Shown here piece after piece: positions 3,711-64,000 of a stretch of DNA of 64,000 nt (positions are counted from its first letter, which is position 1; each line of letters begins with the position of its first letter). The notes below the pieces were generated by a model. It was not told where the DNA came from, did no database searches, and saw only the letters and a program-made list of their open reading frames with translations. Source of the DNA: Bdellovibrio sp. qaytius. GTDB lineage: Bacteria > Bdellovibrionota > Bdellovibrionia > Bdellovibrionales > Bdellovibrionaceae. Location of the stretch: contig CP025734.1 of assembly GCA_004011035.1 (NCBI GenBank), forward strand, positions 637,106 to 701,105, written 5' to 3'. The position numbers were made by a program, and so were the translations under genes.

Positions 3711-3747
3711 AAGCCCCCGTCGGTTCTATTCGATTGGGGCTTTTTTT
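3711..3747 (+). terminator. intrinsic terminator after hpf
   Basis: AAGCCCC...GGGGCTT stem followed by a T-run. Confidence 0.75.
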
Positions 3748-3912
3748 CGTTTCACTCTGAGATATTAGGTGATTTAAAGCACACAACATAATTATTGATA
3801 TGAAACGTCGTCAGCTAATATAACGCCGAGACTAAAGACTAATGTAATCTGTATTCAAGTTGCAGACTGATCTGTAGCAGTTAAGAATTAAGTAATCACG
3901 AAGGAGTGTTAC

Positions 3913-52068: not shown

Positions 52069-54468
52069 ATGGATCAAATGTTAGGTCAGTATTTAACTCG
52101 TTTCGTAACTTCAGTTCCGTTAAAATCGGCAGCTGCGGTATTAGAACTAGCAGCAGAAGGCGGTACTGTTCCGTTTATCGCGCGTTACCGTAAAGAAAAA
52201 ACGGGCAATTTAGATGAAGTTCAAATTCGTGCTGTTATCGAAGCGGCTGAAACTTTTGCTGAAGTTGTAAAACGTAAAGCTTTCTTAGTAAAAGAAATTG
52301 GCGAGCAAAAGAATTTAACTCCGGAAATTGAAAAACGTATTAATCTTTCTTGGGATCTAAATGAACTAGAAGAGATCTACAAACCATTCAAGAAAAAGAA
52401 AAAAACCAAAGCTACAGTGGCGCGCGATGCTGGTTTAGAGCCACTAGCGAACTGGATTTGGGATATGGGTCACGGTCTTGCAAAAGATACGGCGACGATG
52501 GAAGTGAAAGCGAAGTCTTTCTTAAATCCAGATCAAAAAATCGTAACTTACGAAGATGCTCTTAAAGGTGCTCAAGATATTATCGTTGAGAAAATTGCCA
52601 ATGAACCATCATTACGTGAAAACGTTGTTCATAATTATTTTGAAAAAGGTAAAGTGGGCGCGAAAGCAGCTAAAGGCTTTAAACCAAATTCAAAATATGA
52701 AATGTACGCTAAAGACTACAGCGATTCAGTTAAAAATTTATTAGAAGAAAAAGCATCGCACAGATACATGGCGATGAAACGTGGTTGGGAAGAAGAAGAG
52801 TTATCAGTAGAGATTTCTGCTGAAGACGACATCTTGTTAATGATGTACGAAAAATTCGCAACAACGACTCCAGAAAATGCTTTTGGAACTTACTTAAAAG
52901 AATCAGCTCGTTTAGCTATGAATGTTTACGTAGTACCTTCAGTTAAAAATGAAGTTCACGCGAAACTTAAAGAAAAATCTGATGAACATGCGATTAAAGT
53001 ATTTGCTGAAAATGTTCGTCGCGTATTATTAGGTTCTCCGTTTGGACCACGTTGTGTGCTTGGAGTAGATCCAGGTTTACGTACGGGTTGTAAGATTGCA
53101 CTTATTGATAAAGGCGGAAACTTTGTTTCTCACACAGTGATGTACACGTTAGGTGACAACGCTGAAAACGCTGCAAAAACATTAGTGAACGAAGTGACTA
53201 AGCAAATTAAAATCGAAGCGATTGCCGTTGGTAACGGAACTGGTGGCCGCGAAACTGAAATCTTCTTGAAAAAAGTTTTAAAAGATATCGGTAAAGCTGA
53301 AATTCCAGTTGTTATGGTGAATGAATCAGGTGCCTCTGTTTACTCGGCTTCTGATGTAGCTCGTACGGAATTTCCAGATTTAGATATCACTGTAAGAGGC
53401 GCGATCTCGATCGCTCGTCGTTTACAAGATCCTTTAGCTGAGCTTGTGAAAATTGATCCAAAATCTATCGGTGTTGGTCAGTACCAACATGACGTGAATC
53501 AAACTCAACTTAAAAAAGGCCTAGAAGGCGTTGTTGAAAGTTGTGTGAATAACGTAGGTGTTGATGTGAACACAGCCTCATCTTCATTGTTATCTCACGT
53601 TTCTGGTATCGGCCCAGGTTTAGCTACAGCTATCGTTGAGCATAGAAAGAAAAACGGTCTATTCACAGAGCGTTCTGAATTATCTAAAGTTCCAAGATTT
53701 ACTCCGAAAGTATTTGAACAAGCTGCGGGTTTCTTAAGAATTTTAAATGGTAAAGTGTTTCTAGATTCTACAGGTATTCATCCTGAGCGTTACAGCGCTG
53801 TTCGTGATATGGCTCAAGATTTAAATGTAAATTTAAATGAATTAGTTGGCGAAGGCGCAAAAAAACTTGTGGCGACAAGAACTAAATGGGCAAAAATCGT
53901 TGGTGAATTTACATTCGATGATATTTACAAAGAATTAGAAAAACCAGGCCGCGATCCGCGTGATCCATATAAAGTATTTCAATTTAAAGATGATATCTTT
54001 GAAGTAAAAGATCTTAAAGAGGGAATGATTTGTCCGGGTATTGTGACAAACGTAACTAATTTCGGAGCTTTCGTTGATATCGGTGTTCACCAAGATGGTT
54101 TAGTGCATATCTCTGAACTTGCACATAAGTTCGTTGAAGATCCACGTAAAGTTGTAAACCCAGGTGATCAAGTAACTATTCGTGTATTAAAAGTTGATTT
54201 AGCAAAAAACCAAATCGCTTTATCAATGAAACTAGAAGCACCAGCTGATCATAAATCTTTCAGAGATATGAAAGAAGGAAATGCAACTGGCGGTGGACAA
54301 CGTCCTCAAGGTGATCGTGGCCCGAATCGTGGTAATGATCGTCCGCAAGGAGATCGTGGTTCTAGACCAAATCAAGGCTCATTTGGTGGTGGAAACCGCG
54401 ACCAACAGCCACGCAATGGTGGATTTTCGAATAATCCATTTGCAGCTTTGTTAACGAATAAGAAATAA
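52069..54468 (+). CDS. tex: Tex transcription accessory protein
   Basis: TVPFIARYRKEKTG, GVDPGLRTGCK, PKSIGVGQYQHD, S1 domain, RG-rich tail ending NNPFAAL. Confidence 0.96.
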   Translation: MDQMLGQYLTRFVTSVPLKSAAAVLELAAEGGTVPFIARYRKEKTGNLDEVQIRAVIEAAETFAEVVKRKAFLVKEIGEQKNLTPEIEKRINLSWDLNELEEIYKPFKKKKKTKATVARDAGLEPLANWIWDMGHGLAKDTATMEVKAKSFLNPDQKIVTYEDALKGAQDIIVEKIANEPSLRENVVHNYFEKGKVGAKAAKGFKPNSKYEMYAKDYSDSVKNLLEEKASHRYMAMKRGWEEEELSVEISAEDDILLMMYEKFATTTPENAFGTYLKESARLAMNVYVVPSVKNEVHAKLKEKSDEHAIKVFAENVRRVLLGSPFGPRCVLGVDPGLRTGCKIALIDKGGNFVSHTVMYTLGDNAENAAKTLVNEVTKQIKIEAIAVGNGTGGRETEIFLKKVLKDIGKAEIPVVMVNESGASVYSASDVARTEFPDLDITVRGAISIARRLQDPLAELVKIDPKSIGVGQYQHDVNQTQLKKGLEGVVESCVNNVGVDVNTASSSLLSHVSGIGPGLATAIVEHRKKNGLFTERSELSKVPRFTPKVFEQAAGFLRILNGKVFLDSTGIHPERYSAVRDMAQDLNVNLNELVGEGAKKLVATRTKWAKIVGEFTFDDIYKELEKPGRDPRDPYKVFQFKDDIFEVKDLKEGMICPGIVTNVTNFGAFVDIGVHQDGLVHISELAHKFVEDPRKVVNPGDQVTIRVLKVDLAKNQIALSMKLEAPADHKSFRDMKEGNATGGGQRPQGDRGPNRGNDRPQGDRGSRPNQGSFGGGNRDQQPRNGGFSNNPFAALLTNKK

Positions 54469-54531
54469 TTAATTTATTAGATATAAAAACGTGGGTTGGG
54501 ATTAACTGACCCCTAGGAAAAGGATAATATC

Positions 54532-54642
54532 ATGGCTTTAAAAGTCGGTGGCAAAAAAAAAGGTACTAAAAACAAATCAGCTCGTCACAAAGCTAAAAGA
54601 ATCACTAAGAAAAAAAGAATGATCAAAGCCAACAAAAAGTAA
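54532..54642 (+). CDS. unannotated 36-aa highly basic protein MALKVGGKKKGTKNKSARHKAKRITKKKRMIKANKK
   Basis: AGGA SD 7 nt before the ATG; codons (gct, ggt, act, cgt, atc, aac) resemble those of the ribosomal protein genes; double TAA stop. Confidence 0.75.
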   Translation: MALKVGGKKKGTKNKSARHKAKRITKKKRMIKANKK

Positions 54643-54705
54643 TAATTTTTGGTCTGACGGCACGACGCCGTCAGAAGCCTTGCCAGGAAGGTAGCTTCGA
54701 ATTTA

Positions 54706-55317
54706 ATGAAAACTAAAAATATTTTTCTTATTCGACATGGTGAAACGGATTGGAATCGTGCTAAACGATTCCAAGGCCGCACCGATATCCCCCTCAATGA
54801 GGAGGGACGTGCTCAAGCACTTGCTCTGAGTCCACGAATCGTAGAACTAAAAATCGATTTAGTTGTATCGAGTTCTTTATCGCGGGCTCATGAAACAGCC
54901 TTAATTGCGATTCAAGACATTAAACTTCCGATTCAAAAAGATGATCGTTTGCAAGAAACCAATATTGGCGAAGCAGAAGGTCTGACTCACGATGAAATCA
55001 CTGAAAAATTTGGAGTAAGCCATATCGAACGTTGGCGCTCTTATGAAGAACGTGATTTGGATTTTAGATATCCTAACGGAGAATCAAAAAGACAGATGAT
55101 GGTCCGTGTTCGCGAAGCAGTTTTAGATATCGCCCAAAACAACTCTCACCAAAATATAGCCGTGTTTGCTCATGGTATGGTTATGAGAGCTTTGACTTTT
55201 GCTTTTCAACAAGGTGTCGAGTGGGATTTGACTCAATTTCACAATGGCTCAATCCATCATTTTGTGTGGGACGACAAAAGGCCAGAACACCTAAAATACA
55301 TTGGTAAAGTGAATTAA
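54706..55317 (+). CDS. histidine phosphatase (phosphoglycerate mutase-like)
   Basis: LIRHGET, SSSLSRAHETA, ETNIG and FAHG. Confidence 0.9.
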   Translation: MKTKNIFLIRHGETDWNRAKRFQGRTDIPLNEEGRAQALALSPRIVELKIDLVVSSSLSRAHETALIAIQDIKLPIQKDDRLQETNIGEAEGLTHDEITEKFGVSHIERWRSYEERDLDFRYPNGESKRQMMVRVREAVLDIAQNNSHQNIAVFAHGMVMRALTFAFQQGVEWDLTQFHNGSIHHFVWDDKRPEHLKYIGKVN

Positions 55318-55370
55318 TAGTTTAAAATATTAGCAGGGTTCCGTCAGTGACGGACAGAAGGACTTTGTCT

Positions 55371-57191
55371 ATGCCTGCATATTTTAAAAAAGTGTTTTTT
55401 AATTCTACTGGTTCATTTTTACCAGGACCAGCAGTTAACAACGACGAAATGGATTCGTACATTGGTTCAATCAATGCACAATCTAGCCGAATCAAACGTC
55501 GTATCTTAGCTGAAAACGGGATTAAATCTCGTCACTACGGCATCGATAAAGAAGGCCAAACTACATTTTCATCTTCAGACATGGCGATCAAAGCGATCGA
55601 AAATACTTTAGAAAATACGGGCGTTAAAATGGACGACGTTAAATTTTTAAGTACAGGCACCGTGGGCGCTGATATGGCGGCTCCGGGTTTTGCGAATTTA
55701 GTACAAGGTCAGTTGCGAGCTGCTCCGATGCAAACAATGAGCTTTCAAGGGATTTGCGCTTCGGGTGTGGCCGCGATGAAAGCCGCAGCTTCAGTTGTTG
55801 AGTTAGGTGAATTTGATAAAGCCGTAGCGGTTGCGACAGAGTTTCCTTCGCGTTTATTTAAAGCTTCTCGTTTTCAACAGATCGAAGAAAATTTAGATTT
55901 CGATTCGCACTTTTTACGTTGGATGTTGTCTGACGGTTCAGGTGCTGTGTTGATGGAAAACAAACCGCGCGAGACGGGTATTTCATTAAAACTAGATTGG
56001 ATTCATTTAAAATCTTTCAGTGGTGACTATCCGACATGTATGCAAATCGGTGCCCCGTGGGGCGTCGGACAAAATAAAAGTTATTTAGATTATTCGTCAT
56101 TAGCTGAAGCTGAAAAAGCAGGTTCATTTTTACTTCGCCAAGATATTCGTTTATTACCAAATTTATTTGATGTGGGTATCAGTGAGTTTATGAATTTAGT
56201 TTTGAATAACGAAATTCAGCCGAATGAAGTGGATCATTTCTTGTGTCATTACTCGTCAGAAAGATTTTCTGGCGTTGTAAAAACATTGATGGAAAAAGCG
56301 GGCGTTTTAATCCCACCAGAGAAATGGTACAGCAATTTAACTAGCAAAGGTAACACGGGAGCTGCTTCAATTTTTATTATGCTTGATGAATTCATGCGTA
56401 CTAAAAAACCTAAAGTTGGCGAAAAAATTCTTTGTTTTATTCCTGAATCGGGCCGCTTTACGGTTTCGTTTATGCTTTTTGAAGTTTTAGAAGATGGAAA
56501 ATCTAAAAAAATTGAACGTCAAAAACCAGAGGGTCAGTTATTTGAAAAATTATTATTAGAACTGGGTGGTGTTTGGCACAATTACCGTTCTAATGTTTTC
56601 AGAACTGAATTTGCGAATAAAATTTTTAATAATAAATTTTCAGTCGAAGAATATCAAAAGTGGATGGAAAACTGGGTTCCACAGGTGCGTGAGGGTAGTA
56701 AATGGATGCGCACAGCTATCGGAAACCTATCGAGTCAGTTTGAAGGTATTCAAGAGCTTATCGAAGAACATGCTGGTGAAGAGCAATTCGACTTTAAGGT
56801 TCTTTATGCCGATTACCAGAATGCGGGCGGTACAAAAGATATCGACGATCTAAAGCGTAATGCTGGTGGTGAAGCTTTAAATAAATACATGTACGAACGT
56901 GCTAATGGCGTTAATCCCTTAGGATTATTGGGTGGTATTTTTATTATCGAAGGTACCGGAAATAAAATTATTCCGACGATGTTACCTTTCTTAAAGAAAA
57001 GTTTAAATTTACAGATGAATGTTTTTAAGTTCTTAGAGTATCACGGTGAAAATGACGTGAAACATTTAGAGCGTTGGGCCAATGCTGTTGAATTAGCTTT
57101 AACAATAGAGCCTAAGGCTTATGACGACATCTTAGCTACAGCAAAAGAAGTGGCAAGGCTTTATCATGCACAATGGGAGCAAGTACTATGA
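55371..57191 (+). CDS. DarB/StlD-like beta-ketoacyl synthase III fused to a heme-oxygenase-like diiron domain
   Basis: KAS III triad in GICASG, LCHYSS and KGNTGAAS; C-terminal about 230 aa helical domain with QVREG, HAGEE, FIIEG and YHGENDVKH; AAGGA RBS before ATG 55371. Confidence 0.85.
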   Translation: MPAYFKKVFFNSTGSFLPGPAVNNDEMDSYIGSINAQSSRIKRRILAENGIKSRHYGIDKEGQTTFSSSDMAIKAIENTLENTGVKMDDVKFLSTGTVGADMAAPGFANLVQGQLRAAPMQTMSFQGICASGVAAMKAAASVVELGEFDKAVAVATEFPSRLFKASRFQQIEENLDFDSHFLRWMLSDGSGAVLMENKPRETGISLKLDWIHLKSFSGDYPTCMQIGAPWGVGQNKSYLDYSSLAEAEKAGSFLLRQDIRLLPNLFDVGISEFMNLVLNNEIQPNEVDHFLCHYSSERFSGVVKTLMEKAGVLIPPEKWYSNLTSKGNTGAASIFIMLDEFMRTKKPKVGEKILCFIPESGRFTVSFMLFEVLEDGKSKKIERQKPEGQLFEKLLLELGGVWHNYRSNVFRTEFANKIFNNKFSVEEYQKWMENWVPQVREGSKWMRTAIGNLSSQFEGIQELIEEHAGEEQFDFKVLYADYQNAGGTKDIDDLKRNAGGEALNKYMYERANGVNPLGLLGGIFIIEGTGNKIIPTMLPFLKKSLNLQMNVFKFLEYHGENDVKHLERWANAVELALTIEPKAYDDILATAKEVARLYHAQWEQVL

Positions 57192-58081
57192 TGAACCCGA
57201 ACGACATGTTTGCAAATATGCAGCATGACCCGGACGATCCAAGTCCATGGCATGCAATGTATTTAGATCAAAGCACTCCGCTTCGCCCATCTACAAAAAC
57301 GATGTGGCTTACGAATTCAAGCTCTGCTTCAAGACAGTTCGTTCTGCCGTTCGCTAGATTTTTTGCTAAAATTTTGATTATCTTTTTTCAAATTATTAAG
57401 GCTTTGTCGCCGATTGACTGGCGCGCGTCTCGTTTATTGCATCAGTTGATTTACTGGGGTTTAAAATACTTTGTAAAAGCTGAAGCTAATTATCTTATTT
57501 TGCGCCACTTCTGGGCGGGTTCAGAAATTTTAGGATTTATCGGCGGCAATGTGCCCGGAACAAATGTGCCGATGAATCCGTTAAAGCCAAAAAATCTTGA
57601 AGCTTTGAAAGATCATTTGTTTTTAACTCATGACCTGAACTTATTTAATTTCGTGATCAATTTAAATCGTGAACTTAAAGAGAAAAACTTAAAAATTAAA
57701 CCGATTGCAGAACCTAATTTTGCCATGGTCACTGAGGGTGAGTTTGATATTGAAATGCCTAAAGACGGCTTGTTTAATTTTATCGATTTAGAAACAGCTA
57801 TTGAGATTTATACTCCGGTGTTTCAGTTTTTCTTAACCGATAATGATTTCTGGCGCGCGACGAATTCGTTGCAGTTAGATGAAACCATCGGAATTTATGC
57901 AGCGACAATTTTAAGTTCGCAGCAGCATTTGGTTTTAGTGAATAATAAACATCCTTTGGTTAATTTAATCACTTTAAGCGCGGGGTTTCGTTTAGTGCTA
58001 CATGGTTTGTCGACAGAGATGGGCCATTGGTTATTAGTGCAAAAGAAACTTGAGCAGCGCGAACGTACAAAAACGGCGTAA
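57188..58081 (+). CDS. conserved unknown protein (DUF6999-like, from memory) coupled to the KS gene
   Basis: ATGA overlap with the KS stop; HDPDDPSPW..YLDQS.P, ANYLILRHF and SLQLDE. Confidence 0.7.
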   Translation: MMNPNDMFANMQHDPDDPSPWHAMYLDQSTPLRPSTKTMWLTNSSSASRQFVLPFARFFAKILIIFFQIIKALSPIDWRASRLLHQLIYWGLKYFVKAEANYLILRHFWAGSEILGFIGGNVPGTNVPMNPLKPKNLEALKDHLFLTHDLNLFNFVINLNRELKEKNLKIKPIAEPNFAMVTEGEFDIEMPKDGLFNFIDLETAIEIYTPVFQFFLTDNDFWRATNSLQLDETIGIYAATILSSQQHLVLVNNKHPLVNLITLSAGFRLVLHGLSTEMGHWLLVQKKLEQRERTKTA

Positions 58082-58086
58082 ACAAC

Positions 58087-58809
58087 ATGAACTTAGAACA
58101 GAATTTACAACAATTAGTTTTGCAATTGAACCACTGGCAATTTTTCTTGGTCAGTTTTGTTGGCTTTTCTGTATTGTATTTTTCATTTTGTACGATTTCT
58201 TATTATTTATTTTGTGTGAAGAGAATTTGGCCGCGTGTTCAAGATAAAGAATTTCGCCCAGGACAAATTAAAACTGAAATCAAAAGATCGTTTCTATCTA
58301 TTTTAATGTTTTCGCTGCTTGCGATTTGGTTATGCGAAGGTTTAAAGCGCGGAATTTATAAATTCGACTTTGAATTTAAGCTTAACACCTTCTTAGTCGA
58401 AGTTGTTGTCTTGTTTTTCTGGAATGAAATTTATTTCTATAGTTTTCATAGATTATTTCATTTGAAATCTTTGTATAAATATCATGTAGATCATCATTAT
58501 TCTTTCGTGCCTTCTCCGTTTTCTGCCTATAGTTTTCATTGGACTGAGGGAGTTATTTTAGGAGCGGTTATGCCCGCTGTGATGTTCTTTCATGACTTTC
58601 AATTTTACTCGATCATGATCTTACCGACGATGAGTATTACGATGAATGTTTTAGGACATTCGAATATTGATTTCTTTCCTAAATCAGGTCAGGGTAGTTT
58701 GTTAAGTTTTTCAAAGCGCCATAGTCTGCACCATAAGATACCGCATTCAAATTTTGGGTTTTTCTTACCCTGGTTTGACCAGCTTTTTAAGACCGTTGCC
58801 AAAGACTAA
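58087..58809 (+). CDS. sterol desaturase/fatty acid hydroxylase family protein 1
   Basis: His boxes HRLFH, HVDHH, (GH) and HSLHH; FSAYSFHW; TM segments. Confidence 0.9.
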   Translation: MNLEQNLQQLVLQLNHWQFFLVSFVGFSVLYFSFCTISYYLFCVKRIWPRVQDKEFRPGQIKTEIKRSFLSILMFSLLAIWLCEGLKRGIYKFDFEFKLNTFLVEVVVLFFWNEIYFYSFHRLFHLKSLYKYHVDHHYSFVPSPFSAYSFHWTEGVILGAVMPAVMFFHDFQFYSIMILPTMSITMNVLGHSNIDFFPKSGQGSLLSFSKRHSLHHKIPHSNFGFFLPWFDQLFKTVAKD

Positions 58810-58885
58810 TGTTTAGCAATTCTGGGCGGGTGTTAAAAACATCGACAGTGCCAGTGTTCCAAAACGTCTAAGTTGAGATTAAACT

Positions 58886-58901
58886 TGGAACGGCTTTGGC
58901 T
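58886..58901 (+). promoter_or_regulatory. possible sigma54 promoter upstream of the PLD gene
   Basis: TGGAACG-GCTT-TGGCT with GG and GC at the correct -24/-12 spacing. Confidence 0.35.
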
Positions 58902-58913
58902 ATGTACTTTAAT

Positions 58914-60734
58914 ATGAAAAAAAATAGCTCATTATCAATCGTATTGGCTGGAACATTAGCTGTCTCATTTTTAGCCCCTATTCAGGGTAAAGCACAGCTT
59001 GGGCAGATACTTCAGCCGCTTCAAGCTGCGGCCACAAATGCCATTACGGGCGAGCTATTAAGCGTTCAGCTGCAAAAGTTTACACAAATTGTGGGTGTAG
59101 ATGTTGGCTTAGTTGAGTCTGTTTTTAAGACCTTACCTTTAGAAACAGTAGTGCAAATAAAGGACATGGTCGCGACCTGGGCTTCGCAAGGTTTATTAGT
59201 AAATCCAAGTGCTCAATTTGGTATAGTTAAAGTGGGCGATAAATCTGAAATCGCTGATGTGGCTGAAAAAGATTTGTCTCAGGTTGAAAATGATATTTTA
59301 GATCTATTAATTTCATTACATGGCCAAGGTAAATTAATTCCGTTCGTTTCATCGTTAATTGAAATGTTAAAACAAGATCCTAAATATGGTCCGGTTGTAA
59401 GTGCAATTACACCTGAGAAACAATTGATGATCTTAGCTATGTTAGATCAAACAATTACTTCAACAGGATCTTTACGTAAGTTTTCAAAACAAACGTGGAC
59501 TCAGCTTTCTGAGCAATTAGAGGCTAAATTAAACCGTTTTGAAACTGACAAAAAATCTCAAACTAAACTTTCTGATGCGAAATTTAATGAAGAATTATTT
59601 GATGCTGCAAACTCGCAATATTTTTCGAGTGAAAATGTAAGATTATTAGTAAATGGACCTGCGTCTTTTGCGTTACGTGATGCAAAGATGAAAGAAGCTA
59701 CGAAATCTATTAATATGATTACTTGGGCCGTGCTTGACGATAAAACGGGAACAGAATTAGCGGATCTATTAATTGCTAAAGTTAAAGAGGGTGTTAAAGT
59801 TCGCCTTGTTGTCGACGGTCAAGTTAGCAATGGACCAGGTTATACATTACAAGTTAAACGTATGGAAGAAAATGGCGTACAAGTTATTCATTGGATTAAT
59901 CCTGCGGCTTCATTTATGGGTCAACACCGTAAGATGTTAGTTATCGATGAAAAATTAGCAATTATGGGTGGTATGAATCCAGGCGATACATATAGTCATA
60001 AAGCCGGTGAAGGCAAAAATTTATGGCGCGATACAGATGTGGCGTTTGAAGGTGCTGCTGCTGAACAAGTTCAGCGACTATTTACTTCAATTTGGAATAA
60101 ACAAATTGTAGACCGCAAGTTAACATTGAAAAAAATCACTCTTGTCGCGAGAGCGGCGGTTGGAACTTCAGATGGTCAAGCGATGATCATTGAACATCAA
60201 CCAATGTCTACGGGCGATCAGCACACGATTTTATTAACAATTATGAAATCGATTCGTGGTGCGGAAAAAACTGTGGATATCGAGAACGCTTACGTTATTA
60301 CGTTTCCGTCATTAACATTAGAAATTAAAGCGGCCATTGCTCGCGGTGTAAAAGTAAGAGTTTTAACAAATTCAACTAACAGCGTAGATGAAGCTGTAGT
60401 AGCCTTACCTATCGTAAGAAGTGCAAAAAAACTATTAGATGCAGGTGCAGAAGTTTACTTAAAAACAGGAAGCACATTACATTCTAAATTTATGATTGTC
60501 GATCAACGCTTGTTTTTAATCGGTAGTTATAACTTACACCCACGTTCTGAAAAAGTAGAAGGTGAGTCGATCGTAGTATTTGATAATACGAAGTTAGCTC
60601 AAGAAGCGACAGCGACTTTTGAAGATGATATTACTGAAGCGAAAGCTATTAAAATGGATTCAGGCGCAGATATTGTGATTCCAGTAAATGGAACGACGCT
60701 TTTACCGTTACGTATGTTTTACGATCAATTATAA
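58914..60734 (+). CDS. secreted phospholipase D / cardiolipin synthase-like protein
   Basis: Signal peptide ending GKA; two HxKxxxxD motifs (HRKMLVID, HSKFMIVD); long helical N-terminal extension. Confidence 0.9.
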   Translation: MKKNSSLSIVLAGTLAVSFLAPIQGKAQLGQILQPLQAAATNAITGELLSVQLQKFTQIVGVDVGLVESVFKTLPLETVVQIKDMVATWASQGLLVNPSAQFGIVKVGDKSEIADVAEKDLSQVENDILDLLISLHGQGKLIPFVSSLIEMLKQDPKYGPVVSAITPEKQLMILAMLDQTITSTGSLRKFSKQTWTQLSEQLEAKLNRFETDKKSQTKLSDAKFNEELFDAANSQYFSSENVRLLVNGPASFALRDAKMKEATKSINMITWAVLDDKTGTELADLLIAKVKEGVKVRLVVDGQVSNGPGYTLQVKRMEENGVQVIHWINPAASFMGQHRKMLVIDEKLAIMGGMNPGDTYSHKAGEGKNLWRDTDVAFEGAAAEQVQRLFTSIWNKQIVDRKLTLKKITLVARAAVGTSDGQAMIIEHQPMSTGDQHTILLTIMKSIRGAEKTVDIENAYVITFPSLTLEIKAAIARGVKVRVLTNSTNSVDEAVVALPIVRSAKKLLDAGAEVYLKTGSTLHSKFMIVDQRLFLIGSYNLHPRSEKVEGESIVVFDNTKLAQEATATFEDDITEAKAIKMDSGADIVIPVNGTTLLPLRMFYDQL

Positions 60735-60749
60735 TAGGAACGAGTTATT

Positions 60750-61487
60750 GTGAATGATGTTTTAGTTTTTTTAGCCATATTAACAATCGGCACAGTAAAG
60801 TACGGAACTCTTATGGGGATTCCGTATTATGTTTTCTGGATGTTAAAGCCATCATGGTTAACTAAATTTAAAAAAATTCAAGTGCAAGAACGCGCAAAAC
60901 CACAAGTTAAATTAGAGATGAAATACTCAAGCTCCACTTTGATTATCCAAGCTTTTTTCTTTTTTGGAATTTACAAACTGAACCAAGCAGGCCTTGTTCA
61001 CATCGTGTCTGAGCAATCTATTTGGAAAGACCTTATTGCGTTAGCGATCTACGTCGTTATTTATGATCCATTCTTTTACGTGCTTCATCACATTATGCAC
61101 AGAAATAAATGGCTGTACCGCAATATTCATGTGGTGCATCACCGCTCGTTAAACCCGACGCCATGGGCGACTTATTCTTTTCATCCTATTGAAGCGGCTT
61201 TGAACTTACTTTATTTTATTCCATTTTTCTTGTTAACAAGTGTGAGTGTTCCGATGTTAGCGTTTATCTTACTTACGACAGATATGGCTAATCTTGCTGG
61301 GCATTTAGGTTATGAAGTGTTTTCTGAGAAAGTGCAAAATAGCTGGTGGGGTAAATGGATTACAACGCCAACACACCACAATATTCATCACCAAGTTTCA
61401 AATTCGAACTTTGGGTTATACTTCAATGGTTGGGACGTTTGGTTTAAGACCTTGAATTCTAAAGATAAGCGTAAGAAGGCTAGTTAA
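60750..61487 (+). CDS. sterol desaturase/fatty acid hydroxylase family protein 2
   Basis: His boxes HHIMH, HVVHH, (GH) and HNIHH; WATYSFHPIE. Confidence 0.9.
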   Translation: MNDVLVFLAILTIGTVKYGTLMGIPYYVFWMLKPSWLTKFKKIQVQERAKPQVKLEMKYSSSTLIIQAFFFFGIYKLNQAGLVHIVSEQSIWKDLIALAIYVVIYDPFFYVLHHIMHRNKWLYRNIHVVHHRSLNPTPWATYSFHPIEAALNLLYFIPFFLLTSVSVPMLAFILLTTDMANLAGHLGYEVFSEKVQNSWWGKWITTPTHHNIHHQVSNSNFGLYFNGWDVWFKTLNSKDKRKKAS

Positions 61488-61626
61488 TAAGAGAGAACAG
61501 TGACTGGAAGCCAGCCGAGGCCTTCGTGATCAATGGGCTTTGCTCTGCAGCAAGGTGCTTTGCTAAATAAATCACCGTGAAAGCGCCAACATAAAATAAG
61601 AATAGTTTTTTTCTAAATTCGACCAT
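61480..61626 (-). CDS. possible 48-aa small membrane protein MVEFRKKLFLFYVGAFTVIYLAKHLAAEQSPLITKASAGFQSLFSLIN
   Basis: Open frame filling the gap between desaturase 2 and the ABC ATPase; basic N-terminus plus hydrophobic helix; weak RBS. Confidence 0.4.
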   Translation of the reverse strand: MVEFRKKLFLFYVGAFTVIYLAKHLAAEQSPLITKASAGFQSLFSLIN

Positions 61627-61728
61627 GGCGCGATAATACTTCACTTTCTACAGTTTGCGTGAATATGTTTCAGTTTTTGAAAACAATAAATGGTTGTCAA
61701 AAATCTTTACAGAGCAGACAATGGTGCA

Positions 61729-62406
61729 ATGTCATCAGTAGTAGAAATTAAGAATATATCAAAAAGTTATAAATTGGGCGAAACACATGTTGAAGCGATT
61801 AAAAACTTATCCTTAGTCGTAACAAAAGGTGAGTTCACAGCACTGATTGGGGCTTCTGGGTCAGGCAAAACAACACTTTTAAACTTAATTGGTTGTTTAG
61901 ATGGTGTTGACCGTGGCGATATCTTTATTGATGGCATGAATGTTAAACAATTAAATGAAAATCAGAAGAGCCAGCTGCGTAATGAAAAAATCGGCTTTAT
62001 CTTTCAATCGTTCAATTTGATTCCTGTGTTAAATATTTATGAAAACGTTGAATTGCCTTTAACAGTTCGTAAAGACATTCAAGCCCCTGAACGTAAAGCT
62101 AAAGTTGAAGCGGCTCTAAAAGATGTAGGCTTAAGTGATTTTATGCATCACCGTCCAGATCAATTATCTGGTGGGCAACGTCAGCGTGTAGCTATTGCCA
62201 GAGCATTAGTGACTTCTCCGGCTTTAATTTTAGCTGATGAACCTACAGCGAACTTAGATTCTAAAACTGCAAATTTAATTATTGATTTGATGTTAGAACT
62301 TAACAAAACGAAGAATGTGACATTTTTCTTTTGTACGCATGATGAAAAATTAATGAGTCGTGTGCAAAAAATTGTAAAAATTAAAGATGGTCAGATCGAA
62401 GCATGA
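61729..62406 (+). CDS. LolD/MacB-type ABC ATP-binding protein
   Basis: GASGSGKT, IGFIFQSFNLIP, LSGGQRQRVAIARAL and ADEPTANLD; the start may be 61690. Confidence 0.93.
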   Translation: MSSVVEIKNISKSYKLGETHVEAIKNLSLVVTKGEFTALIGASGSGKTTLLNLIGCLDGVDRGDIFIDGMNVKQLNENQKSQLRNEKIGFIFQSFNLIPVLNIYENVELPLTVRKDIQAPERKAKVEAALKDVGLSDFMHHRPDQLSGGQRQRVAIARALVTSPALILADEPTANLDSKTANLIIDLMLELNKTKNVTFFFCTHDEKLMSRVQKIVKIKDGQIEA

Positions 62407-63725
62407 TTTGGAAATTCGCTTATAGAAATTTATTACGCAATAAACGCCGTTCGTTATCAACGGGTGTCGCGATTTGTGTTGGTTTCGTAGGTTTAAATCT
62501 TTTAGGTGCGTATATCTATCGATCAAAGATGGCTCTAGATGTGACGTCGGTGTATTCGGCCCAACGTGGTCACGTGAGTATTTATAAAAAAGATTCGATT
62601 CAGCAATATCAAATTAAACCCAAAAAATACGTGTTTAGTCTTGAAGAGCAAAAGCAAGTTGAACAAGTGATCGCTGAATTTAGCGATCGGGTTGATTTTA
62701 CCGGAAAGAAAATCACGGTTCCTGGTTTGTTATCGAATGGAACTAAGTCGCATCCGGTTGTGATTTATGGTTTTGATCCAGTTGCGTATAAAAAATCTTT
62801 AACACAGCCAAGTTTATTAGAATGGGCCAGCGATTGGGTTTTACCTTCACAAAGAACTGATGCTGATTTATTTATAAAAAATCCTGAAACACTTTCGATC
62901 ACACCTAAAATTGCAGAGCTGATGTCATTTAAATACCCATTAATCAGTAATGAAGCTGTGCAAATCGCAGCTCGTACGTTAGACGGAGATTTAAATGCGA
63001 TTAATGCTGATCTGGGTGCCGAGCACACAACGGGCATGCAATTTCTTGAAGACACAGTGGTGTTGATTCCGATTGCGAAGGCGCAAGAGTTATTAGCGAC
63101 TGATGCGGTTGAATCAATTTCAGTTTATTTAAAGCATGACGTTTCGGTAAATCCATTTATTCGTGATCTCAAAGAAAAAATCTCTGGGTTAAGTTTTGCT
63201 ACCGATTTGTATAAGTTTGATGCCGTTGAGATCAATGCCCTTCATCAAGGAACAATGGGATTTTTGTATGTGATGGGCGGATTTTTTGTATTTTTAATTT
63301 GTACAGCGGTGAGCCTTACAATTATTAATTCGCTGACAATGGGTATTATCGAGCGGACTCGCGAAATAGGAACTTTGCGCGCCGTTGGCTTTAAGACAAA
63401 AGACGTTGTGCAATTATTTGTGCGCGAAAGTATTTTATTATCAGCGATGAGTATGGCTGTGGGTATTTTGATTTCATTTTTAGTTTCATCAGCCATTAAT
63501 GCGGCCAATGTTCGGTTTTTTCCACCAGGGGCGAGTCAGAAGATTCAGTTCGTGTTGAAGTGGAACTTATACATTGCTGGCGCTGTTTTTATTTTACTAT
63601 TTGCGATCGCGACTTTTTCATCGTTTTTTGTGATCAAAAGCAAATTACGCACAAAACTGATCGCTTTATTAAACGACACTTCAACTTTCGATGACGACAG
63701 TGAAGAAGAAGAGGAAGCCACATGA
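62403..63725 (+). CDS. LolC/E-type (MacB-PCD/FtsX) ABC permease
   Basis: AYRNLLRNKRRS, large periplasmic domain, ERTREIGTLRAVG; ATGA overlap with the ATPase. Confidence 0.9.
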   Translation: MIWKFAYRNLLRNKRRSLSTGVAICVGFVGLNLLGAYIYRSKMALDVTSVYSAQRGHVSIYKKDSIQQYQIKPKKYVFSLEEQKQVEQVIAEFSDRVDFTGKKITVPGLLSNGTKSHPVVIYGFDPVAYKKSLTQPSLLEWASDWVLPSQRTDADLFIKNPETLSITPKIAELMSFKYPLISNEAVQIAARTLDGDLNAINADLGAEHTTGMQFLEDTVVLIPIAKAQELLATDAVESISVYLKHDVSVNPFIRDLKEKISGLSFATDLYKFDAVEINALHQGTMGFLYVMGGFFVFLICTAVSLTIINSLTMGIIERTREIGTLRAVGFKTKDVVQLFVRESILLSAMSMAVGILISFLVSSAINAANVRFFPPGASQKIQFVLKWNLYIAGAVFILLFAIATFSSFFVIKSKLRTKLIALLNDTSTFDDDSEEEEEAT

Positions 63726-64000
63726 AATTATTAGTTTTACTTTTAGCTATTCCATTTTTTGTCCCGACATTTGCTTTTGCTGATTTAGCGACAGACCTCT
63801 TAAAAGCTTCTGACCGCGCTCGCGGCAGTGTTAAAGACGGTGTTCAATGGAGTGCAGTGATTGAAACTGAAGAAAACGGCGAAAGCAGCACACGTGAATT
63901 TAATATTAAAGCTAAAGGTGATGATGCTTATGTTGAAGCGACAAAGCCGGCAAAAAACAAAAGTGAGATTTATATTTTTAATGACCGCAATATGTGGTTT
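63722..64000 (+). CDS. outer-membrane lipoprotein-sorting (LolA-like) protein, 3'-truncated
   Basis: Frame read by hand: MKLLVLLLAIPFFVPTFAFA-DLATDLLKASDRARG...EATKPAKNKSEIYIFNDRNMWF; signal peptide and ATGA overlap with the permease. Confidence 0.7.
   Translation, partial: MKLLVLLLAIPFFVPTFAFADLATDLLKASDRARGSVKDGVQWSAVIETEENGESSTREFNIKAKGDDAYVEATKPAKNKSEIYIFNDRNMWF

Follow-up and report, generated by a model that had tools for sequence, protein, structure and literature searches.

A conserved ketosynthase-dimetal oxidase fusion paired with DUF6999, and a possible envelope-lipid island around it in Bdellovibrio sp. qaytius

A 64,000-nucleotide stretch of the Bdellovibrio sp. qaytius genome (contig CP025734.1, forward-strand positions 637,106 to 701,105; hereafter the window, numbered from its first letter) contains most of a gene cluster that opens with a gene pair conserved across bacterial phyla. 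The first gene of the pair encodes a ketosynthase (KS) of the KAS III type (beta-ketoacyl-ACP synthase III) fused to a heme-oxygenase-like dimetal (HDO) domain, and the second encodes a DUF6999 protein. KS-HDO and DUF6999, often together with one membrane His-box enzyme, are the conserved unit. The cluster comprises 11 same-strand genes, from 55371 to ~66987, as determined from the window and the adjoining stretch (L002, G000:C1:700000-715000) of the complete 3.35 Mb genome. Besides the core pair it includes two His-box enzymes (FAH1 and FAH2), a secreted phospholipase D (PLD)-superfamily enzyme and a five-gene export module. We read the block as an accessory envelope-lipid island, in which a conserved biosynthetic core is combined with lineage-specific handling genes, and we hold the chances for and against this reading to be even. 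By the cassette we mean KS-HDO, DUF6999 and FAH1, to which FAH2 may be added, and we have high confidence that it is a genuine unit of biosynthesis.

A pattern scan of species-representative genomes returned at least 566 KS-HDO/DUF6999 loci in six or more phyla, and the best 80 of these were examined. In all 80, wherever sequence was available, KS-HDO was located directly upstream of DUF6999 in the same order. These 80 loci span six phyla including Gram-positives. Their hosts are Pseudobdellovibrionaceae (among them Pseudobdellovibrio sp. HCB154, with a complete genome), the Beta- and Gammaproteobacteria Variovorax, Cellvibrio, Achromobacter, Comamonas, Chitinibacter and Parazoarcus, as well as Paenibacillus, Cohnella, Bacillus, Bacteroidota, a Chlorobi-related metagenome-assembled genome (MAG) and a Verrucomicrobiota MAG. 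Pseudobdellovibrio and Pseudobdellovibrionaceae are the closest named relatives. The KS-HDO tree has a deep split into two types. Pseudomonadota and Pseudobdellovibrionaceae make up the first, as two monophyletic sister groups, and all remaining sequences, with those of Bacillota and Bacteroidota, make up the second. Since the pair occurs in six phyla including Gram-positives, the core is tied neither to predation nor to the outer membrane, and the suggestion in the original prediction that the product may be delivered to prey finds no support, nor does a predator-specific role. A recent foreign origin of the block was also considered and rejected, as the composition gave no sign of it (GC content 0.36-0.40 throughout) and the Pseudobdellovibrionaceae sequences form one clade in the KS-HDO tree. 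Proteobacteria add an FA_desaturase-type His-box gene beside the core. A different arrangement was seen in a distant member of the Bdellovibrionota (L017, G090:C2:1321-19145), where FA_desaturase, cytochrome P450, DUF6999 and a divergent PF04116 gene precede a KS-HDO gene; its product is only 38% identical to the fusion of the window.

The KS-HDO gene (55371..57191, + strand) probably starts at the ATG at 55371, which gives a protein of 606 aa, and its homologues are 604-606 aa long. Residue numbers below are counted from a GTG at 55347. The best solved relative of the KS domain (residues ~15-380) was StlD (5gk0; E 1.6e-74, ~45% identity), while FabH structures matched at ~1e-9. StlD has conserved C, H and N positions, which we take to be its catalytic triad; their counterparts here are Cys137, His301 and Asn336, invariant in 33 homologues. 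By sequence the enzyme clearly belongs with the chain-joining condensing enzymes of the StlD/DarB type, as the original prediction had it. The top NCBIfam match was NF005293, the StlD/DarB family, at 367.1 bits (cut-off 450), and the DarB model NF053539 gave 315.8 bits (cut-off 550). Because both scores are under the cut-offs, the alignment scores place the domain in a sister clade of StlD/DarB and not among its curated members. DarB and StlD condense a beta-ketoacyl and a 2-enoyl thioester to a cyclohexanedione acid, which the partner aromatase DarA or StlC converts to a resorcinol (PMC13748660).

A short linker joins the KS to the HDO domain (residues ~392-614). PF14518 matched the C-terminal 223 residues with 33.5 bits (cut-off 28.9), and the HDO-domain profile matched the structural-genomics protein 3dde at 6.7e-11. 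The AlphaFold2 model of the domain had a predicted local distance difference test score (pLDDT) of 94, and Foldseek aligned it with TM-scores of 0.80-0.83 to 3dde and CADD and ~0.72 to UndA. In an alignment of 33 homologues, H475, E479, D482, E535, H566 and H573 were invariant and D570 was at least 90% conserved; these three His and three to four carboxylates are candidate metal ligands. The spacing HxxxDxxH presumably fits the last ligand helix of CADD. The candidates on the first helix run in an unusual order, H475 and then E479. No paper describing such a KS-HDO fusion was found in the literature searched.

These two domains also bear on an alternative core chemistry. The KS could make a beta-keto acid or, like PpyS, an alpha-pyrone, and the HDO domain could act as an UndA-like decarboxylase to yield an alkene or ketone, and the cluster would then make a keto lipid or one resembling a hydrocarbon. 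The KS scores under the curated cut-offs and the similarity of the HDO model to UndA are in keeping with this chemistry, and the invariant Arg576 near His573 could bind a carboxylate. However, enzymes of different reaction types would not be expected to share as much as the 45% identity seen with StlD across the entire domain, the HDO domain is nearer to the CADD/3dde type than to UndA, and DUF6999 would be left without an obvious role. We regard this chemistry as quite improbable. A cyclohexanedione- or resorcinol-type product, the outcome expected of an StlD/DarB-type enzyme, seems to us neither more nor less probable than its opposite.

The second gene of the core (57188..58081, + strand) encodes a protein matched by PF22523 with 397 bits. 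DUF6999 proteins are 54-60% identical across phyla, with H90, H112, H153, D154, D205, D223, D236, E237, H260, H277 and E282 invariant. One hydrophobic helix was found at residues ~57-75. The AlphaFold2 model is all-helical (pLDDT 86.7, predicted TM-score 0.86), and neither a Foldseek match at E<=0.001 nor a sequence match was obtained in the PDB. Comparison by hhalign gave no relation to the HDO domain. No mention of DUF6999 was found in the literature searched. PF22523 occurs in 8 of 301 genomes of the phylum and also matches in the Caulobacter vibrioides genome used as a control; Caulobacter and Variovorax are both considered genetically tractable. In genome G250, of the same genus, the DUF6999 gene (G250:C4:151849-152672; L018 13237-13878) is broken by TAA stops, with KS-HDO, both hydroxylases and the exporter apparently intact and the PLD missing. 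Either pathway decay or an assembly error may account for the broken gene.

FAH1 (58087..58809, + strand) and FAH2 (60750..61487, + strand) are predicted membrane His-box hydroxylases or desaturases. They matched PF04116 with 72.8 and 92.1 bits, respectively (cut-off 31), and both contain hydrophobic segments. The His boxes are HRLFH, HVDHH and HSLHH in FAH1, and HHIMH, HVVHH and HHNIHH in FAH2. The two proteins are only 25% identical, and their distributions differ: homologues of FAH1 adjoin the cassette in the majority of loci from Pseudomonadota and Bdellovibrionota and in some of those from Bacteroidota and Paenibacillus, whereas FAH2 is confined to the Bdellovibrionota versions of the cluster and is missing even there from the otherwise identical cluster of L104, which has the PLD. 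With the HDO domain, these enzymes account for three predicted oxidative centres of the dimetal type, in support of the original prediction.

All eight same-strand genes of the original prediction are present, as + strand open reading frames (ORFs) from 55347 to the window end at 64000, with the overlaps and gaps it described; the cluster itself is larger and runs past 64000. The ATGA overlap at 57188-57191 between KS-HDO and DUF6999 was read directly in the letters, and 4-base ATGA overlaps at 62403 and 63722 follow from the coordinates. FAH1 is preceded by a spacer of 5 nt (58081 to 58087) and FAH2 by one of 15 nt (60734 to 60750). Beyond the window lie the rest of the LolA_like gene, a second FtsX permease gene and the gene of a 406-aa secreted protein, after which the strand flips. 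Domain scans of the 11 genes found no acyl carrier protein (ACP; PP-binding domain), no acyl ligase and no flavodoxin or DarA-type aromatase, in agreement with the original prediction; no search for DarA was made outside the cluster. Promoter and terminator scans gave background levels only, and Rfam had no match over 54300-64000.

Five further genomes or contigs (L019, L020, L021, L054 and L104) contain the block with its gene order unchanged and with 59-97% protein identity. Recurrence of the genes elsewhere had been set beforehand as a test of the prediction, and this result upholds it. The block shares one site, after tex and a histidine-phosphatase gene and before a convergent HAD gene followed by topA. 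In genomes of the same genus without the cassette, the gap between the histidine-phosphatase and HAD genes is only 584 bp (G024, with nothing in it but a small thioredoxin gene) or 783 bp (G168), as compared with ~12 kb in G156 and in the present genome. Because the site is empty in G024 and G168, the 11 genes are one unit of insertion or deletion. This and the recurrence of the block show that the arrangement is more than a chance one. The histidine phosphatase was discarded as a pathway gene, being a flank gene that stays beside Tex in relatives with an empty site. Neither an integrase nor a tRNA was seen at the island borders in this genome. In the more distant loci L022-L027, KS-HDO, DUF6999, FAH1 and usually FAH2 are located beside flagellar genes, and there is no PLD.

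The interval from the histidine-phosphatase to the HAD gene (here 55317 to ~67336) varies within the genus: it is empty, at 0.6-0.8 kb, in two genomes, 2.3-3.8 kb in three, ~11-12 kb with the cluster in three, and ~15 kb with other content in G226. Two small reading frames were noted near its ends. A very hydrophobic 120-aa ORF without a Pfam match lies on the - strand, that of the HAD gene, between the barrel and HAD genes (L002 4083-4445; ~66977-67339). Between tex and the histidine-phosphatase gene, the segment 54492-54675 could encode a Lys-rich protein of 36 aa, in support of which the related contig L104 has a gene call of 36 residues at the same position (3721-3831).

The PLD gene (58902..60734, + strand) is located between FAH1 and FAH2. 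Its product contains two PLDc_2 domains (129.7 bits) and two HKD motifs, of which HRKMLVID is at residue 344 and the other, HSKFMIVD, at residue 529, and hydropathy indicates a signal-peptide-like N-terminus, in support of the predicted secretion. The protein also has an extra region of ~230 aa at its N-terminal side. The best family matches were cardiolipin synthases, all under cut-off (TIGR04265, 151.7 bits against 290). FAH1 and FAH2 are adjacent, without a PLD gene, in G250 and L022-L027, and on this comparison the PLD gene is a later, recent insertion between them. Homologues with 40-46% identity stand alone in unrelated contexts of other Bdellovibrionota, which excludes a cassette-specific PLD family; the gene belongs to a secreted PLD subfamily typical of Bdellovibrionota.

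A PLD has also been recruited in Variovorax. In Variovorax sp. W6, genes for an HlyB-type ATP-binding cassette (ABC) exporter, an HlyD adaptor, a two-HKD PLD, a PF04116 enzyme, an FA_desaturase, KS-HDO and DUF6999 follow one another on one strand. The PLD gene lies within ~4 kb of the cassette in 10 of 10 Variovorax loci, in two arrangements. The Variovorax PLD is 23% identical to that of the window, its N-terminus looks like a lipoprotein signal, and the exporter belongs to another class. Thus in two distant lineages the same core has gained, independently, an exporter and a PLD that acts outside the cytoplasm. From a rough estimate that ~1-2% of 20-kb segments hold a PLD-family gene, two independent in-operon recruitments by chance are unlikely. 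The independent recruitment in Variovorax makes a head-group role for the PLD, as proposed in the original prediction, plausible, and the late insertion and the stand-alone members of the subfamily speak against it; we consider that role possible but doubtful.

Downstream of FAH2, after a gap of ~200 bp (61488-61689), the export module begins with an ABC ATPase of the LolD/MacB-like type (61690..62406, + strand; ABC_tran, 122 bits). It scored 243.5 bits with the LolD model TIGR02211 (cut-off 307.75). The first FtsX-type permease (62403..63725, + strand; PF02687, 54.9 bits) has four transmembrane helices and a large periplasmic loop. It is followed on the same strand by a LolA_like carrier of 244 aa with a signal peptide (63722 to ~64456, of which the window holds 63722..64000; PF17131, 98.3 bits), by a second FtsX permease (~64461-65774; 63.6 bits) and by the 406-aa protein (~65767-66987), which has a weak match to DUF6646. 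Given its signal peptide and C-terminal Tyr, the last is probably an outer-membrane barrel. No LolB was found among the 11 genes. With the lolCE model TIGR02212 the permeases gave 34.7 and 54.6 bits (cut-off 362), and a far better LolCE match, of 255.6 bits, lies elsewhere in the genome at G000:C1:2168557. The idea that the module is the housekeeping Lol system was rejected on this account, and by its sequences it qualifies as an accessory Lol-like system, consistent with the exporter of the original prediction. A stronger PF17131 match (140 bits) was found at G000:C1:3286805-3287353, inside a 1036-residue ORF, which may encode a large membrane protein with a fused LolA_like domain.

The five genes of the module are kept together in G156, G250, G064/L026, L104 and G180. 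Within the family the exporter is linked to the cassette in three arrangements; it is downstream of the cassette here and upstream and partly inverted in G064/L026. In G226 it is located elsewhere in the genome. A LolA_like orthologue with at least 62% identity was present, among the family genomes checked, in all five cassette carriers and in one of ten non-carriers, counts without phylogenetic correction, and the co-occurrence is suggestive. In G180 the module occurs without the cassette (L101, G180:C12:84000-98000). On one side it is bordered by genes for a lipid kinase of the DAGK type, an NAD_binding_4 protein resembling acyl reductases and a 712-aa protein of no recognised type, and on the other by those for four uncharacterised proteins and an AMP-binding ligase. 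A second lipid pathway may use the same exporter type in that genome.

In G250 the equivalent of the ~200-bp gap between FAH2 and the ABC gene contains a gene for a 348-aa protein on the opposite strand (L018 10477-11523). Because of the gap and of this opposite-strand gene, the biosynthetic and export halves may be separate transcripts, and the ABC gene may have its own promoter.

These observations also fit a simple juxtaposition, in which only the cassette is functional as a pathway, the PLD is an ordinary secreted phospholipase of the predator, and the exporter is a general accessory one for lipids or lipoproteins with another substrate, all brought together in a variable hotspot. The stand-alone PLD homologues, the loss of the PLD in G250 and of FAH2 in L104, the exporter without a cassette in G180, the inserts of other content (2.3-15 kb) at the same site in G277, G176, G180 and G226 and the separate transcript suggested by the ~200-bp gap all agree with it. 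On the other hand, the exporter adjoins the cassette in three different arrangements and its close orthologue is found in five of five carriers against one of ten non-carriers. The PLD gene is within the operon, between FAH1 and FAH2 and with short spacers, and in Variovorax the core has independently come to lie beside a PLD and an exporter, in 10 of 10 loci. We therefore treat juxtaposition as a less probable but serious explanation. The gene set, which the original prediction had taken as one system, is better described as a conserved pair of KS-HDO and DUF6999 with a lineage-specific PLD, FAH2 and exporter, the linkage of the exporter being frequent and not constant. It could as easily be true as false that the exporter carries the cassette product.

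If it does, the product need not stay in the envelope. The exporter could instead secrete a diffusible signal or antibiotic, such as a dialkyl-cyclohexanedione, resorcinol or pyrone of the kind that serves Photorhabdus and Pseudomonas for signalling or as an antimicrobial. Relatives of StlD and DarB do make bioactive resorcinols and cyclohexanediones, and the exporter classes found with the cassette are unrelated, MacB/Lol-type here and HlyB/HlyD in Variovorax. The cassette is not accompanied by any conserved gene for a receptor or regulator, though, and a LolA_like carrier with a barrel suits insertion into the outer membrane better than release. Membrane His-box enzymes and a PLD likewise point to bulk-lipid chemistry. 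A secreted small molecule is accordingly unlikely in our judgement.

For the envelope-lipid island, the sequences show the gene content, the protein families, the obligate pairing of KS-HDO with DUF6999, the behaviour as an island and the modular additions. The chemistry at each step, the direction in which the exporter works and what the PLD does are inferred, in the following scheme. The KS domain would join two fatty-acyl thioesters to a two-chain scaffold of the cyclohexanedione-carboxylate type; the thioesters would come from primary metabolism, and the cluster contains neither an ACP nor a ligase. The fusion would channel the ring intermediate to the HDO domain, which would oxidise it with O2, most economically by an oxidative decarboxylation or aromatisation, in place of the missing DarA/StlC; a decarboxylation like that of UndA would yield the aromatic ring in a single step. 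DUF6999, membrane-associated, would carry out a further obligatory step, possibly metal-dependent, and FAH1 and FAH2 would introduce hydroxyl groups or double bonds into ring or chains. The ABC ATPase and the two FtsX permeases would then take the lipid out of the inner membrane, the LolA_like protein would ferry it through the periplasm, and the barrel would receive it in the outer membrane. On the periplasmic side the secreted PLD may modify the lipid or a phospholipid partner. LolA-like carriers dedicated to the aryl-polyene and flexirubin pathways, for which such export to the outer membrane has been proposed, are a precedent (PMC8253772, PMC11885536).

A more specific version of this scheme can be formulated. 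The KS-fused dimetal domain would take the place of DarA as a decarboxylative aromatase of a new, O2-dependent kind, and DUF6999 would be the founder of a metalloenzyme family with a new fold; together they would give a phenolic or quinol two-chain lipid of a class not seen before. In the periplasm this would receive a phospho-head group from the PLD, in Pseudobdellovibrio and independently in Variovorax, and a private Lol-like route would take it to the outer membrane as a new class of envelope phospholipid. We think it improbable that all of these parts hold together.

The scheme resembles several known systems in part. Like the DarAB(C)/StlCD(E) systems of Pseudomonas, Chitinophaga, Photorhabdus and Eikenella, the cluster has an StlD/DarB-type KAS III enzyme with a conserved triad, by which a head-to-head joining of two fatty-acid-derived chains is expected, and would draw its substrates from primary lipid metabolism. 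It differs in that no DarA/StlC aromatase and no DarC ACP are in the cluster, and in that the KS is fused to HDO, DUF6999 follows, and His-box enzymes, a PLD and an exporter are attached. The HDO domain shares with CADD, UndA and 3dde the helical fold (TM-scores 0.72-0.83), and its conserved HxxxDxxH helix with further Glu and His ligand candidates may correspond to theirs, but it is fused to a ketosynthase and its first helix reads H...E. The aryl-polyene (ApeL/M/N) and flexirubin (Flavobacterium johnsoniae LolA2/LolB2) pathways likewise combine lipid synthesis with their own LolA-like carrier, an inner-membrane transporter and an outer-membrane component, and flexirubin itself contains a DarAB-made resorcinol. 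Here, however, an ABC ATPase with two FtsX permeases takes the place of an RND/MMPL pump, a probable barrel of ~400 aa that of a LolB-like protein, and polyene synthase genes are absent. With the LolCDE-LolA-LolB and MacB systems the module has in common a LolD-like ATPase, two FtsX permeases with four transmembrane helices and large periplasmic loops, and a carrier of the LolA fold. Unlike LolCDE-LolA-LolB it scores under the cut-offs, has a carrier of PF17131 instead of the PF03548 type, lacks LolB, and is accessory among close relatives. The PLD shows the two HKD motifs and two-domain layout of the cardiolipin synthases ClsA/B/C, but carries a probable Sec signal peptide instead of N-terminal membrane helices and the additional ~230-aa N-terminal region. 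The analogy with the sphingophosphonolipids of Bacteriovorax stolpii drawn in the original prediction was not borne out, no Spt-type gene being present here.

Several of the sequence comparisons weigh against the envelope-lipid island as proposed. The KS falls short of both the StlD/DarB (367<450) and the DarB (316<550) cut-offs, and the chemistry of a sister clade could differ. On the first helix of the HDO domain the order H...E departs from that of CADD and UndA, which we take to be E and then H. Paenibacillus has a bare KS-HDO/DUF6999 pair among unrelated neighbours, so the core can function without the PLD, the exporter and the His-box enzymes. Members of the PLD subfamily stand by themselves elsewhere, the PLD is missing from the otherwise identical cluster of G250, and the two recruited PLDs have little sequence in common, at 23% identity. 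The exporter occurs without the cassette in G180, and conversely the cassette has no adjacent exporter in G226, G184 and G090.

What is new here is the island behaviour of the block and the modular variation of the PLD, FAH2 and exporter within one genus, together with the parallel, non-homologous recruitment of a PLD and an exporter in Variovorax and the presence of the exporter beside other lipid genes in G180. Like the original prediction, we found no product assigned to the cassette or the gene set in the literature. The pair is widespread, in at least 566 species-representative genomes, yet we found no product, structure or paper for it. Solving the pathway would add a reaction to the heme-oxygenase-like oxidase family, give DUF6999 a function and probably define a new class of lipid or signal. 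The window provides the fullest context for the cassette so far, placing it in one insertion/deletion block with a periplasmic PLD and a complete export route from the inner to the outer membrane, and this context yields a testable hypothesis on where the product goes, namely to the envelope.

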